Assembly (NCBI GenBank): GCA_951406725.2
Contig: OX597830.1
Span: forward strand, 4,774,001 to 4,838,000
Direction of reading: 5' to 3'
From: Octopus vulgaris
Lineage: Eukaryota
Length of the DNA stretch: 64,000 nucleotides
Positions 11,401 through 39,525 of the stretch are shown in pieces. A program made the translations under genes and the position numbers. Each line of letters opens with the position of its first letter. The stretch's first letter is position 1. The notes under the pieces were generated by a model. It had not been told where the DNA came from. It saw only the letters and a list, made by a program, of their open reading frames with translations, and did not search any database.

Positions 11401-12099
11401 TACATTTGAAACCGTACACTCGATCATTAACTCTTTAAACTTTGTTTATCCCGCAAATCAATTTTACACATCTTCATGAACTCATTCTGAAATGGTCTCC
11501 TTGAGGCTTATTTTATGTAAATCTTTTAATTAATGTCCCAGAGACAGATTATAAAAACCAATAACAAATACAAAAAAAAAAAACATTGCCTTATGGAATT
11601 TAGTGCCAAATGTAGAATTACAATATCAATCAGGAATTATATATTGATTCACTAGTAATCCAATTTATAAACAGCTATGTACATATAAGATGTCAGACAT
11701 TGAGAACTATGAAAGGACGAGGACTCTATGAATTCTAGTTTGTGATAGGTTTGATAGCATGAAATCTTCTCAATATTTCACTATCTGAAATTCTAAAAAA
11801 AATTCTTTAGCGTCAATGAAAATAGTCCAAAAGTTTGCAGACATTCAGAAATAAAAGATCAATACACAAAATTTATTTCATCTTTGATGTATTTTAGTAA
11901 TAGCCATAATTTCTAATTCCTTCACACTTACAAGCCTCATCTGGCTACAGAAATTAATGGGAGGAATTCCTTTGGGATGCTGTTTATTTCCACACTAACA
12001 ATCTGTCAGAATGAAGTTTGTTCTGCAAAATTATTTTCCATCCTATTAGAAGAATTATAAATAGCAGGTTTGAACTTGCTGATTGGGTTAACGAAAGGG

Positions 12100-12329
12100 T
12101 TAACATTTTTATTATCACATTTCTGTTGAAATTTGCTGCCTTTATTTCAATTAATTTCAAAAATAATGAAGAATTTAGCCAACTAACTTTGTCATTATTA
12201 AGTTAGTGCTTGCAACAGAAATGAACATGAAATTTTAATGGAAAGTTTAAATTTTGATCATTTTAAAACATGAATTTTGTATCGTAGAACCAAGGGTAAT
12301 CTCAAGTGGGTTACTATCAAAAGAGTTGG
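12100..12329 (+). mobile_element. TTAA-flanked (piggyBac-type) MITE; reverse copy at 28262-28476, fragment ~16545-16681
   Basis: Shared internal sequence (tttcaattaattt..aagaatttag..taactttgtcattattaag) in inverted orientation at 28262-28476. Ends are degenerate TTAAC...AAAG(G/A)GTT. Confidence 0.55.
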
Positions 12330-12853
12330 AAGATAAGAGCCAGCCATATTGGTGTTGTTATTTGGAACAGAAAAAGAAAAAGTACAAAATGTAACAGATT
12401 TCAACTTTTGAATTTATTAGGAGTTACTTCGTTTCTTTTTCTGAAATTTTCAGTTTATATTTCATTTTTGAAATTCACCTAGAATCATTTTGAAATATCA
12501 TCTCAAAAGTTTGAAAAGTTTTTACAGTTTGTTTATTTTAGCTGTACATTGAAACCCATTGTTCCACTTGCATCAGTATCCACTACCTGAGATATTAACT
12601 TCATCCACTTCGAATTTTTAGAATTTGGCCCAGAAAAATGGCATTTCATTATAGAAGATAAGCATTAATTTATGCTAATCATTGAATGTTAAACACATTC
12701 AATTTATTTTAGTATATGATGTATTAATATAAATTACCAACAGAATTTGTTGATGCCAATTTAAAAACCTGGATCATTTGACATTCATAACATTTATTAT
12801 GAAGTCAGAGGTAATTTTAAAATAAATGAAAATTATTATTTTTTATTTTCCAG

Positions 12854-13529
12854 GTGAATGGGGCCCATGCGAACATCGTTGGTGTGGCGAAAATGGAACA
12901 AAAACGCGGACTTTGAAATGTGTTGGTGTATACGGAGAAACAGTGGATATAGCGAGATGCGATAACGTCCACAGACCGGCAACACAGGAAAACTGTTATA
13001 AACCTTGTAATCATCACAGAAGTAATTTCAACTGGGAAATTGGTACCTGGGGAAAATGTAAGCCATTTTTGCCAACATTAGCTTGTAAAAGGCAGGTGGG
13101 TCTTCAGACTCGACCTGTCAAATGTTTCTCAGTGAAAGACAAAAAAGTAAGAGATGATGATGTATGTAGTTACTTCTTAAGAAAACCCAACACGGAAAGA
13201 GAGTGTCAGGTCTATTGCCCGCAGGACTGTATTGTTAGTGAATTTTCAAACTGGAGTTCTTGTGATTCTTGTACTTACATCAATAAAACAAGAACGCGAA
13301 CTGTGGTGGTTCCTCCTTTTGCTGGTGGTAAACCTTGTCCTGTTCTTTCTGAGATGAGACCTTGTCCAAAATGCATCGATTCTTTTACATTTAAAATTGG
13401 ACCATGGAGAAAATGTATGGAAATTCACACTAAAAATTCAGTTCATAAACAAAGATTTCATCATTACATTGGATACCAGGAAAGGGATATAAGTTGTCTT
13501 GGGCGACATGGAAGACTTGTTCCTCTAAA
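12854..13529 (+). CDS. THSD7A: Internal coding exon of a thrombospondin type-1 domain-containing protein 7 (THSD7A/B)-like gene
   Basis: Cys/Trp-rich open frame GEWGPC..CGENGTKTRTLKC..RPATQENCYKPC..WEIGTWGKC..GLQTRPVKC..CPQDCIVSEFSNWSSC..RTRTVVVPPFAGGKPCPVLSEMRPC..IGYQERDISC matches the N-terminal TSP1 array of THSD7A as I recall it. The acceptor is a polypyrimidine tract + CAG (ttttattttccag|g, AG 12852-12853) and the donor is AA|GTAAGT (GT 13530-13531). Phase 1 start, phase 2 end. THSD7A vs THSD7B orthology cannot be resolved. Confidence 0.92.
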
Positions 13530-14610
13530 GTAAGTGATAACATCTTTCATTTTCCTTCCATTTCACTGTAACAGAAAAAATTACTTTGAAGTTTATTGAA
13601 CAAGTGTGCAATGTTGTTGTTTGACCCTGAGTCAGCTATAATTGTCTATATTCCAGGCAGTACTGGCAACGACCTTGCTCGAATCTTTTTACACATACCA
13701 CTGGCCCTGGTGCCAGTAAGGCAGTGCTGGTAATGATCACGGAAGCCAGTTAGCCCTTTTGGCAACGATCATGCTCAGATGGTGCTCTTAGCACCCTACT
13801 AACATGGGGCACAAGTGCCAGTAAGGCAAACAACATGAAATGAATACCTTGCTTAAGGTCACAATGCACCCCTCAATCTAGAAATTGAACCAATGACTTT
13901 CTGATTGAGAGACCAACACCCTAGATGCAAAGTTACAGATGCCTTCCCTCCACACCTGCCACCTCATCACATATACAAGTCTAACACTTCATTTACATTA
14001 AATATTTTCACTCTGATTTCCTATTTGCAATATGACCATCTACAAAGTGAAATATTACTAATCAATTTTTGTTTTCTTTTCATAATATGATTTTGGAGGT
14101 GATGACAATATGTAACACTAGAGCCAATCAGTTTTAATAGAATGTTGAATACTCCATTGCTGGTATACATTTCACAATAAACTTCTGTTCCAATAATTCC
14201 AGATTCCCCCCCCCCCCACCTCTTCTCATATATCTTCTTAGTAGCACTTCTATTAACTTTCTAACAAAATGTGATCATTGTTAAGTCTTACTCTCCATTA
14301 TATTTTGGGTGATAGGTTTCAAATTCTTTGGAATATATTTTGTCAATAAATTCTTCCTAACTCAGGCAACACCTATCAACTCATCAAAGAATTTGTGTCA
14401 AATGTAAATTTACTTCTCTACAACACTTTATTACATGTTCTGTTCTACACCATTTTTATTCTCTCGACAACTTTCTAATATCAAGTGATTCAAATTTATA
14501 TTTTTCAATACTTCATGCACCTTTACACTACTGAGTTTGAATTTCTCTAAAATCTATTAACTCCATATTATGGAAATTAATCTTTATTAATGGTGATGAT
14601 GATGATGATG

Positions 14611-23238: not shown

Positions 23239-23385
23239 GAAAGGAGGCTGAAGGGATAGAAGGAGTGAAAGGAGGCTGAAGGGATAGAAGGAGTGAAAGG
23301 AGGCTGAAGGGACAGAAGGAGTGAAAGGAGGCTGAAGGGATAGAAGGAGTGAAAGGAGGCTGAAGGGATAGAAGGAGTGAAAGGG
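23239..23385. repeat. 28-bp minisatellite, ~5.2 copies (GAAAGGAGGCTGAAGGGATAGAAGGAGT)
   Basis: Units start at 23239, 23267, 23295, 23323, 23351 and 23379 (partial); a single T>C variant. Confidence 0.97.
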
Positions 23386-35104: not shown

Positions 35105-35425
35105 GCTGAGCTGAAAATGTGTGACAGTGCAACATTTCTTTACAATACAGAGTTGAGAAAGTGTGATACTATCAGCTCTGGTATATACCCCATCTATCTG
35201 AAAATATATAAGTGTATCAGGTATGTGATGTACCCTGTCTATCTGAAAATATGTGACAGTGTCAGGTACGTCATGTACCTTGTTTATCTGAAAATGGGTG
35301 ACAGTGTCAGGTATGTGATGTACCCTGTCTATCTGAAAATATCTGATATTAAAAGCACTGTGATGTACCTTACATACCTGAAAATATGTCATGACACATC
35401 TACATCGTATCCCGTCTATCACACA
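35105..35425 (+). repeat. 45-bp minisatellite (~7 diverged copies) with an open 15-aa repeat frame
   Basis: ctgaaaat at 35198, 35243, 35288, 35333 and 35378 (45-bp period), plus diverged copies near 35111 and 35153. Plus frame YPVYLKICDSVRYVM. Confidence 0.9.
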
Positions 35426-35816: not shown

Positions 35817-37353
35817 GTGTAACTCGTGAATTGTTTTCAAAATACAATATGGAGCTAATGTTCCCCTCACATTAACTCGAAAAACTTTATACAACAACAG
35901 CAACAACAAAAAAGAAAACACAAACTAAACACACACACAAAAATGCTTCATTTGTTACGATGTGTCAGGAATCTAAAAAAGTTTGCATCAATGCATTTCA
36001 TTTCAAGTCATGAAATCATAAGATAACAACATATGTCAATAAAGACAGAAATAATAACTATTTTGTACAAGAATACCTACTATTTCTAGTCTATTCATTC
36101 ATATGATTATATTCTTCATCTCTTCAAGTGGAATAGAATCAATAATGGTAATATAAAGCTTTCTTACACTTCTTTATTATTAGTAGTTTTTTTTTTCTTT
36201 CTTTTTTTTTTTACATTTTGGTAAAGCAAGCTGCTTGCTAAAATAGGTGCAGCAAATAGGCCTGAAGGAATCTCTTCTATAAAATATTAATAATGAAGAA
36301 AATATTTCAATAGCTGCAAGCCAATTGTTATTTTCTCTTGTTTTCAATTGCTGAAGGGTCAAATAAAATGTAAAACCTGCATTCAGACGTTAGCATTGAA
36401 AATAAAAATTTATATTCTTTTGATATTTTACTATAAACTATATATTTCTTTTCACACATCCCAAAATAATCACATAGGATTTAGGAATATATCTACTTTC
36501 ATTTTTTGCTTTGTCTTTCTTTTTTTTTATTTACACCGTTAAGTTAAACTTAGCTTTCAAGAATCTTATTTTCTTGTCAGTCAAAAATATACATTCAGTA
36601 ATCCTATCTTAGCCATTTCATATTGCAACATATGGAAATTTACTTTTAGATTTGGCCTTTAAGCCATCTCAACTGTAAGGAAGCGATATTTATTTGAATT
36701 TTAGATTATTATTCAATATATTTTCATCTAAGTAATTTTAGGCATCATCAGAATTAATAAAATTTCAAATCCATTTTATTTTGTATTTGTTGATTTTATT
36801 CTAAACTTTTGAAATCTAATAACAAATTCACTTAGTTGATATTGATATTTCAAAAATTATTTTTGGCTTAATGTTTTAATGAACCTTATGATACAAATGA
36901 AGATGTTACTAGTCACCTAACAGTATTGCTGCATGTAAATAGAATATTCTAGCATTCTTTAAGAGTTTGCTACTTAAAAGTGAAAGTTTGTGCAAAGAAT
37001 ATTTTTACCATTTCTAAGATGACAAAATCTGTTAATGTAACCAAAAGTTGTGTTAGTCTTCCTTAGATTATTTTAACTATATGTAGTTTACATTTGAAAA
37101 TTGTCTTCAGGTAAAGTCTTCCATTTGTTTCAATCACTAGAAAGCAGCCATGCTGGAGCAGCACATCTTGAAGAGTTTAATCAAGCAACTTGACCTTAGC
37201 GTTTATTTCTTTTATGTCCAGCGCCCTTATTCTGTTAGTTTCCCATCACAAATCAATAAGTTATGAGGACACAAACAAACACCAGTGTGGGGACAAAGAA
37301 AGACATGCACATACATACATGTACACATACACATATATATATATACATACATA

Positions 37354-37385
<32 letters not shown>

Positions 37386-37565
37386 CATATATAAACATAT
37401 ATATATATATATATATATAAAAGCAATAAAGATTCAAGTTAATTTAAATGAATTTACTTGAATATGGTACCTAATTTAGATGCACCAAAAAAAACTATAC
37501 TGATTTAACAATACAGTAATGTGGGGTGATTATAAGTGAGAATGAAGCAACAAGAATGGATAGGT

Positions 37566-37656
37566 TTTTAGTACAATCGTTTCATACAAGGACAGGTTTT
37601 ATTAAAAGTTGTAAAAATTACAGCATATAAACGTGTCCCATACTCATCAGCTAAAA
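37566..37656 (-). ncRNA. Type-I hammerhead ribozyme (antisense twin of 38004-38094)
   Basis: Minus strand ttttagCTGATGAgtatgggaca..tgtccttgtatGAAAcgattGTActaaaa; core intact. Confidence 0.78.
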
Positions 37657-38003
37657 TACATGTGAGTTCTCTAGACATCCTAGATACAAAGGATTAATTC
37701 ACCCTCTCTGTAATGCTAATAAGCAGGAATTGAAACCCACCTCGTTGTAATTAACAATGGATAAATTTGTCTTCTGTGAGTATGTAATCCCTCATCATAT
37801 CTCTGGAAATTCATATGTGCACTATGGATTATGTCACCTCCTCTGTGATGCTATTAAGACTTTTTTAAAATTCTGTGATAAGACTGTACATCATCTTTAA
37901 AGAACTTTAATGAACTTTTGAAATCTGTTTATGTTACTTAATTATCTACATTACTTCATGAGTATAGCCTCAACCACTAGGATGTCTAGAGAACTCACAT
38001 GTA

Positions 38004-38094
38004 TTTTAGCTGATGAGTACGGGACACGTTTATATGCTGTAATTTTTGCAACTTTTAATAAAACCTGTCATTGTATGAAACGATTGTACTAAAA
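38004..38094 (+). ncRNA. Type-I hammerhead ribozyme with long stem II
   Basis: Stem I TTTTAG(38004-9)/CTAAAA(38089-94); CTGATGA 38010-16; stem II GTACgggaca..tgtc(a)ttGTAT; GAAA 38077-80; helix III AC-gatt-GT; cleavage triplet GUA (38086-88). Confidence 0.8.
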
Positions 38095-38124
38095 ACCTAT
38101 CCATTCTTGTTGCTTCATTCTCGC

Positions 38125-38177
<53 letters not shown>

Positions 38178-38218
38178 TATATACATATATATCTTCTCTG
38201 GATCTTTCCTTCTCCTAT

Positions 38219-38253
38219 GTTTCTGACGAAGAGCTCCACTCGAAACGTTAAAC
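38219..38253 (+). ncRNA. Minimal type-I hammerhead ribozyme (PLE-type, palindromic helix III)
   Basis: GTTT-CTGACGA-A-GAG ctcca CTC-GAA-ACGT-T-AAAC: stem I GTTT/AAAC, stem II GAG/CTC, ACGT palindrome. It lies in a ~150-bp insert (38192-38340) flanked by (TA)n. Confidence 0.8.
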
Positions 38254-38389: not shown

Positions 38390-39525
38390 AGGAAGGGCAT
38401 TAGGAAGGGCATCCAGCCGTAGAAACACTGCCAGATCTGACTGGGCCTGACGAAGCCTTCCAGCTTCACAGACCCCAGTTGACCCGTCCAACCCATGCTA
38501 GCATGGAAAGCGGACGCTAAACGATGCTGATGATGATGATGATGATATATATATATATATATATATATATCATCATCATCATCATCATCATTTAGCGTCC
38601 GTTTTCCATGCTAGCATGGGTTGGACGGTTCAACTGGGGTCTGGGAAGCCAGAAGGCTGCATCAGGCCCTGTCCGATCTGGCAGTGTTTCTACGGCTGGA
38701 TGCCCTTCCTAACGCCAACCACTCCATGAGTGTAGTGGGTGCTTTTTACGTGCCACCCGCACAGGGGCCAGACGGAGCTGGCAACAGCCACGGACGGATG
38801 GTGCTTTTTACGAAAGTAAAAACGACTTCTTATATTTCAAAGCAAATCCTCTCAACCAAAATGCTCCCACTACACTCATGTAAATGATAATATCAAGTGA
38901 ACAGCATGCTATAAAACCTTGTGGTTAAATTATACTAAAATAATAATTATATATGTAATTATATGTAATTATATATGTTCCATTATATAATTTATATATA
39001 TAATTATTACTTTGGTCTATATATATACATGTAGTCAAGCATTGCCGATGCTAATGCCGCCTGACTGGCTCCCATAATGGTGGTATGTAAAAAGCACCCA
39101 CTACACTCCCTGAGTGGTTGGCATTAGGAAGGGCATCCAGCTGTAAAAGCCTTACCACGTCTGACTGGAGCATGGTGCAACCTCCTGGCTTGTCAGTCCT
39201 CAGTCAAACAGTACTACCCTTGCTAGCATGGAAAGTGGATGTTAAATGACAATGATGATGATATATATATATATATATCATCATCATCATCATCGTTTAA
39301 CGTCCGTTCTCCATGCTAGCATGGGTTGGACGGTTCGACCGGGGATCTGGGAAGCCAGAAGGCTGCACCAGGCTCCAGTCTTATCTGGCAGTGTTTCTAC
39401 ATCTGGATGCCCTTCCTAACGCCAACCACTCCGTGAGTGTAGCGGGTGCTTTTTACGTGCCACCGGCATGGAAGCCAGTGGAGGCGGCGCTGGCATCGGC
39501 CACGAGTCGGATAGTGCTTTAGTGC
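38390..39525. mobile_element. Two tail-to-tail pairs of family-C SINEs around (TA)n
   Basis: 38390-38545(+)/38571-38812(-) and 39040-39262(+)/39278-39525(-); each junction is (GAT)n(AT)n(CAT)n. Confidence 0.88.

Follow-up and report, generated by a model that had tools for sequence, protein, structure and literature searches.

What kind of element leaves two near-identical hammerhead motifs on opposite strands of one intron, and does their pairing serve to silence them? The question is raised by an inverted repeat in the window analysed here, a stretch of 64,000 nucleotides from Octopus vulgaris (contig OX597830.1, positions 4,774,001 to 4,838,000). A preliminary description of this sequence saw in the repeat a very young inverted-repeat element with twin ribozymes, and proposed that the antisense arm could sequester the ribozyme in a long double-stranded RNA and thereby protect the host pre-mRNA. 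Our analysis covers the arms themselves, their relatives in the 2.8-Gb genome searched, and the wider class of hammerheads to which they belong.

Anatomy and setting of the inverted repeat

The two 149-nt arms are 97% complementary, are separated by 293 nt and differ at exactly four positions (38020/37640, 38048/37612, 38070/37590 and 38123/37537), the arm length and the number of differences being as first reported. Each contains a type I hammerhead motif whose parts lie where the preliminary description had placed them (stem I, CTGATGA, GAAA and a GUA at 38088), cleavage being predicted. The features of the locus are as follows.

12853..13530, plus strand: host exon, THSD7A-like, amino acids 41-266
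37309..37418, no strand: left-flank (TA)n/(ACAT)n microsatellite, likely insertion target; the ends of other copies also join TA runs
37419..37683, minus strand: tailed, 5'-truncated 3' end of the Hydra-type Penelope-like element (PLE), 265 nt, ending ~153 nt beyond the cleavage site
37419..37534, minus strand: 116-nt tail, on this arm only; continues into the 5' UTR and ATG in longer copies
37535-37683, minus strand: minus-strand arm, 149 nt
37566..37656, minus strand: type I hammerhead motif with a 60-nt domain II and three private changes; CTGATGA starts at 37650, predicted cleavage base 37572
37684..38125, plus strand: tailless, inverted, 5'-truncated copy, 442 nt of 3' UTR/pLTR, ending 37 nt beyond the cleavage site
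37977-38125, plus strand: plus-strand arm, 149 nt
38004..38094, plus strand: type I hammerhead motif composed of stem I, CTGATGA, 60-nt domain II, GAA and a palindromic stem III word; one private change
38004-38009 with 38089-38094, plus strand: stem I of this motif, 6 bp
38010-38016, plus strand: CTGATGA
38017-38076, plus strand: domain II, 60 nt
38077-38079, plus strand: GAA
38080-38087, plus strand: stem III word ACGATTGT, 8 nt, palindromic
after A38088, plus strand: predicted cleavage
38126..38192, no strand: right-flank (TA)n
G000:C17:4848632: next matched host exon, amino acids 266-352, with further exons in L222

The window motif possesses the hammerhead core CUGANGA, GAAA and NUH together with stems I-III, and scanning the whole window on both strands for such pairing brought up the twin motifs plus one weak candidate. 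The genome-wide copy count called for in the preliminary description gave 1,166 first-look candidates for the arm (all 42 matches listed are 98-100% identical) and 904 matches to a core-plus-stem-I pattern, against none for the reversed control: the twin motifs are far beyond chance. Rfam yielded no hammerhead match in the window up to E=10, which reflects a model mismatch and not a missing core.

Stems II and III call for corrections to that description. Of the long stem II first described, the length of ~60 nt stands; the continuous stem does not, as the domain is an interrupted hairpin made of a basal helix, internal loops and a distal hairpin. Its length is atypical, as was already remarked. 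Published Hydra-clade hammerheads are short-armed, and the motif does not have the minimal form of PLE hammerheads, in which helix III is absent and helix II spans 7-8 bp. The base of stem II is a G-U pair in the window family and G-C in sister families, and the window domain II taken alone is no more stable than its shuffles (z -0.5 and -1.0). Stem III, missing from the preliminary description, is an 8-nt self-complementary word that forms no stable hairpin: it self-pairs across all 8 nt, including two G-U pairs, into a duplex of -5.8 kcal/mol, while in the monomer a folding model gives it two pairs with a probability of ~0.02. Hammerhead numbering here, like the two-nucleotide-loop argument applied below to the third stem III pair, follows general background on the motif.

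All four arm differences are departures from the family state, the family base being found at each position in 29/29 other loci, which were chosen by likeness to the plus arm. The first 100 listed of the 904 matches likewise hold the family base at the three in-motif difference positions, one copy being otherwise changed at 38070. Three of the private changes fall on the minus arm, two of these at CpG, and one falls on the plus arm.

The host exon at 12853..13530 is 99.6% identical to the Octopus sinensis THSD7A protein; its position and that of the next matched exon place the element within an intron of ~61 kb transcribed on the plus strand. The surroundings are rich in other repeats. A minimal type I hammerhead of another family lies at 38219-38253 (+), ~130 nt downstream of the plus-strand ribozyme and between TA repeats, with a 4-bp stem I, a 12-nt domain II and a 4-nt palindrome, and has near-identical copies in L034 and L165; a mixed dimer between it and the window motif is unlikely because the palindromes differ. 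Inverted pairs of another, GC-richer repeat occupy 38396-38716 and 39064-39479 (148 nt at 92% and 133 nt at 81%), the former being centred on (ATC)n/(TA)n, and these pairs cause spurious miRNA matches. Minisatellites with 45-bp (35186-35389) and 28-bp (23239-23384) units are also present in the window.

A probable Hydra-type Penelope-like parent and its paired 3' ends

The view of the repeat as a young element is borne out, and it is PLE-derived. The minus-strand segment 37419..37683 is about 95-98% identical to the region in which other copies end at 3' (L002-L030, L032, L033), and walking upstream in other copies defines a unit of ~4.66 kb, in which a 3' UTR of ~1.6 kb separates the ribozyme region from a 951-aa ORF. 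The ATG lies 209 nt past the cleavage site. Pfam produced no domain match on this ORF. Its reverse transcriptase (RT) and GIY-YIG regions, identified from unnamed homologues and from motifs read by eye against the alignment provided with PMC8557442, display RWK, DKT and YRDD, a CxCX5C linker, a VIY..YIG core that lacks an internal Cys pair, and CxxC plus CxH at the C-terminus. The marks listed for the Hydra clade in PMC8557442 (RWK, DKT, CxCX5C, no CCHH, C-terminal CxxC/CxH) are present. The single ORF with RT and C-terminal GIY-YIG that characterizes PLEs is found in longer copies, the window copy having no ORF. Among 8,000 scored candidates, 37 are protein relatives, including an argonaut protein at 43%; 9/150 scored nuclease matches sit in open frames of 947-984 aa, which indicates that the family is young and may be active. 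In one copy (L033:5160-8015) a pair of long Asn-rich insertions interrupts the ORF near the RT-nuclease interval, and the 3' UTR contains a long pyrimidine tract.

The copies further display the pLTR, or partial tandem, arrangement of PLEs and insertion into (TA)n. From 30 ORF-start loci taken, 19 were parsed and 11 were not; 14/19 reach upstream through the ribozyme, starting 82-1206 nt upstream of the cleavage site, 5/19 stop downstream of it, and 0/19 begin there. This distribution suggests that the template was probably uncleaved or circular, the data fitting either. Four sequencing runs, presumed to be of RNA, supply contigs that span the pLTR and some of the ORF, two of them crossing the cleavage site; these carry no information on strand, end or level and are not used as evidence. 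On the sequence evidence of ORF motifs, (TA)n targets, and pLTR and tail layout, the parent is most readily identified as a Hydra-type PLE.

How the copies are paired was surveyed in the first 100 listed of the 904 matches, which lie on contigs C1 and C2 only and represent 60 loci. Divergent pairs occupy 38 of these (37 pairs plus one complex divergent locus, with spacings of 113-5437 nt), 22 have one exact-match copy, and none is convergent; the inverted-pair frequency raised as a check in the preliminary description is therefore high in this sample. The 3' ends are equally constrained. Among 58 ends, counted with an anchor spanning the cleavage site so that copies ending at the site are invisible, 24 lie +35-41 nt past the site, 33 lie at +144-162, and one continues into the ORF. 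Nearly every pair (24/26) combines one tailed and one tailless end, and the two exceptions belong to one complex locus. In the window, the two copies meet head-to-head at 37683/37684. An inverted 5'-truncated partner and a one-ended tail have been described for PLEs (PMC8557442), here with a tail of 116-120 nt vs 30-40 bp as published, and dual hammerheads on opposite strands 100-700 bp apart have been reported, as noted in Schistosoma (PMC4209133). The inverted pair is thus the default of the family, in a layout already described for PLEs and PLE hammerheads. In the account given in PMC11167929, two RT start sites bound the tail and both target strands are extended; our two clusters of 3' ends match these two tail-defining start sites.

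These regularities bear on two other readings of the inverted pair. Near-perfect inverted arms between TA flanks would also fit a MITE or a DNA transposon whose terminal inverted repeats measure 149 bp; we give this practically no credence, however, since both arms correspond to nested segments of a single retroelement 3' end, their inner junctions vary, the tail is asymmetric, and an RT ORF lies upstream. Adaptive self-silencing supposes that the monomer is active and that intronic inverted pairs are kept because the antisense arm blocks cleavage of the host pre-mRNA. Several elements of this proposal stand: the locus is intronic and is crossed by the plus-strand host pre-mRNA, and folding predicts an arm-arm duplex (mean pair probability 0.98) that would outcompete and exclude the ribozyme fold (stem I ~1e-80), whichever strand is transcribed. 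The antisense arm is indeed made first on the plus strand, but this order is not limited to that strand, as it holds in both transcription directions. Depletion of retrozymes from Xenopus introns, as stated in the preprint 10.64898/2026.07.22.740005, implies that active hammerheads can be selected against in introns, and the window stem III has 2 bp plus a tetraloop, a form described in PMC7229834 as more stable than a 1-bp helix. A special protective arrangement is nevertheless not what the pairs amount to: they are the family default under a fixed tail rule, so that selection is not needed for the layout, and Naiad elements make the same inverted structures without canonical hammerheads, as presented in PMC8557442. 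Moreover, a lone copy that barely forms stem III, as the monomer fold predicts, would probably offer little to silence. Adaptive self-silencing is therefore unsupported, and we regard it as very unlikely.

Long-armed hammerheads in the octopus genome

Motifs with a long domain II (42-76 nt) and an 8-nt stem III word are abundant: three mutually exclusive patterns gave 2,607, 8,218 and 1,651 matches, with reversed controls of 82, 52 and 0, hence about 12,000-12,500 long-armed motifs against a control of 134. A matching short-armed pattern (9-31-nt spacer) gave 4,452, with a control of 170. Both counts are lower bounds, covering one stem III type and spacers of 42-76 and 9-31 nt.

The 60 long-armed loci that we sampled, from the first two long-arm patterns, which demanded no pairing beyond fixed outer stem III letters, fall into 16 clusters. 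When one member per cluster, the first, is examined, the stem III word is self-complementary in 15/16 (chance ~0.19), stem I has at least 3 bp in 12/16 (chance 0.06) and the basal stem II has at least 3 bp in 14/16 (chance 0.15), this last figure being partly forced by the pattern. All three pairing tests were passed by 10/16 clusters vs 0/80 matches to a similar pattern in a metagenome null, where at least 119 pattern matches occurred, 80 were examined and none had an element protein. Rfam recognized none of 18 long-armed loci at gathering score.

An alignment of 11 motifs from the window family and its nearest sisters shows 93.7% of cells pairing, compared with 30-49% in slid controls; 9/26 pairs change on both sides, and the covariation score was reached by 0/500 shuffles. 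The covariation sought in stem II is thus found, the distal hairpin included, and it extends to stem I. It constitutes support and not proof, because the rows are related (about four families) and themselves supplied the structure. The third pair of stem III is G-C, G-U or A-U while the word stays self-complementary, and in the monomer it would enclose a loop of 2 nt. By eye, domain II seemed able to form a pseudoknot with the 3' or 5' flank, but this was rejected in a permutation test on 17 family representatives (p 0.85, 0.38, 0.91), in which Watson-Crick family-specific pairing between domain II and flanks was not found.

Families B, C, D and E, as labelled in the present analysis, have a Hydra-like protein beside them; most sampled copies of other long-armed families are without one, matches being present at 3/20 loci in one scan. 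A second abundant Hydra-type family (L170-L174, L182), with a 51-nt domain II and an RT region about 58-69% identical to that of the window family, accounts for most of the 100 matches listed for one long-arm pattern and also makes divergent pairs. At L175, L177, L178 and L179 (532-535 nt) and at L176 (594 nt), long-armed hammerheads recur once per unit in tandem arrays of 98-100% identity; these appear retrozyme-like and are candidate sources of circular RNAs. Short-armed arrays of about 545-560 nt are seen among the short-pattern matches.

What the long arm and the core are for can be read in other ways. The arm may be neutral baggage, any hairpin being tolerated, length drifting among families, and only the core and basal pairs mattering. 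Consistent with this, domain II lengths in the genome range from about 10 to 85 nt, the sequence is not conserved between distant families, pairing with either flank shows no family specificity, and short-armed Hydra elements exist, one of them from Octopus bimaculoides. Against it, long forms outnumber short ones by ~2.8 to 1 for the 8-nt stem III type, 14/16 cluster first members fold better than their own shuffles (mean z -2.0), and changes in the distal hairpin are compensatory among the nearest families. Neutrality remains a serious contender, although we lean against it. A different proposal is that the motif no longer acts as a catalyst and persists as a signal for RNA dimerisation or protein recognition. 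None of the parsed copies starts at the cleavage site, and in the insertion assays of PMC11167929 ribozyme mutants left in vitro insertion unaffected and no RNA reads ended at the site. The same source, however, relates that the Anolis ribozyme cleaves once protein is added, and core and cleavage triplet are common to ~17,000 motifs in many families, bearing in mind that the patterns demanded both and that reversed controls gave 304. We consider loss of catalysis quite unlikely.

Origin of the pair and comparison with known systems

Taken together, the locus is very probably a truncated young Hydra-type PLE, whose tailed and inverted tailless 3' ends stand head-to-head in (TA)n, each with a predicted hammerhead. 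Direct observations are the ORF motifs, the match to full-length copies, the two fixed positions of the 3' ends, the tailed/tailless rule, and the conservation and covariation of stems I, II and III. Both ends likely derive from one insertion event with two primings. The GIY-YIG nuclease would nick both (TA)n strands, and each nick would prime reverse transcription at one internal RNA site, ~36 or ~155 nt beyond the point of cleavage; both cDNAs would end early and then be joined. As 149 nt are copied twice, this scheme requires either two RNA templates or a re-copying step. Dimers paired through the 8-nt palindromic stem III are the predicted working form of the hammerhead, which would process a tandem precursor RNA, possibly into circles. 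The 60-nt domain II, a conserved interrupted hairpin, is likely an appendage with a structural or protein-binding role. Catalysis and dimerisation, like any function of the arm, are predictions. In the host intron transcript there would be a single sense copy caught in a 149-bp duplex, so that the locus is most likely an inert by-product.

A bolder extension holds that octopus genomes contain a large overlooked class of active long-armed hammerheads, in which the palindrome pairs two RNAs, domain II provides a protein handle, and a two-RNA particle primes both strands and so gives the tailed/tailless pair. We judge this unlikely. If true, circular retrozyme RNAs would come from the tandem long-armed members, and long double-stranded RNA from hundreds of inverted pairs within introns.

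The kind of element and its inverted arrangement are known; new, as far as the literature searched indicates, is the long-armed structural variant. Our literature search, whose coverage of variant surveys and supplements was incomplete, found no description of long-domain-II PLE hammerheads in cephalopods, and 'hammerhead' and 'ribozyme' are absent from the main text of PMC13282606. Given the Rfam misses and a published relaxed core search with a 7-17-nt spacer (PMC8557442), cephalopod ribozyme counts may be underestimates, and some 'no hammerhead' calls in PLEs may likewise undercount. The many natural covarying families offer a ready series on arm length and dimer formation in the control of cleavage.

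The closest systems are the Hydra-clade PLEs in Craig et al. 2021 (PMC8557442), including Hydra-1_Obim and Penelope-13_HM. They share with the window element the RWK, DKT, CxCX5C and CxxC/CxH motifs, the Cys-pair-free GIY-YIG core, (TA)n targets, a 3' hammerhead with palindromic stem III and an inverted partner truncated at its 5' end; in File S2, Penelope-13_HM bears hammerheads on both strands. The window element differs in its larger unit (~4.66 kb vs generally under 3 kb) and longer tail (116 nt vs 30-40 bp), its Asn-rich insertions, its ~1.6-kb 3' UTR, and a domain II of 60 nt, where the Hydra rows of File S2, judged by eye, have about 12-26 nt. The minimal and dimeric PLE hammerheads of Cervera and de la Pena 2014 (PMC4209133) are alike in being type I, in lying within pLTRs, and in their palindromic helix III and expected dimers; their helix II has 6-8 bp and they have little or no helix III, whereas in the window motif the palindrome measures 8 nt and the 60-nt domain II is built of several segments. 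For the long arm itself, precedent exists in the spike-moss PLE-X1 hammerheads (File S2 of PMC8557442), with a domain II of ~50 nt; these are, however, two single plant cases flagged as non-canonical, from nuclease-less Chlamys-related elements, with no covariation shown there. Non-LTR retrozymes, as presented in PMC7229834 and 10.64898/2026.07.22.740005, resemble only other long-armed families found here, those in tandem arrays of 532-535 and 594 nt: the window locus derives from a coding element and is arranged as an inverted pair, and not as a non-coding tandem repeat with one hammerhead per unit.

With its intact ORFs, two widely spaced ends and near-strict tail rule, this young family is a good substrate for studying how PLEs form inverted insertions, named an open question in PMC8557442. 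The Poseidon element PAc of Anolis, in the work of Frangieh et al. 2024 (PMC11167929), likewise has a tail between two RT starts, AT-rich targets, cleavage and extension of both strands, and a hammerhead near the ORF start; it belongs to another clade, has a short stem II, and its hammerhead overlaps the start codon, in contrast to the window family, where the ATG lies well past the cleavage site.
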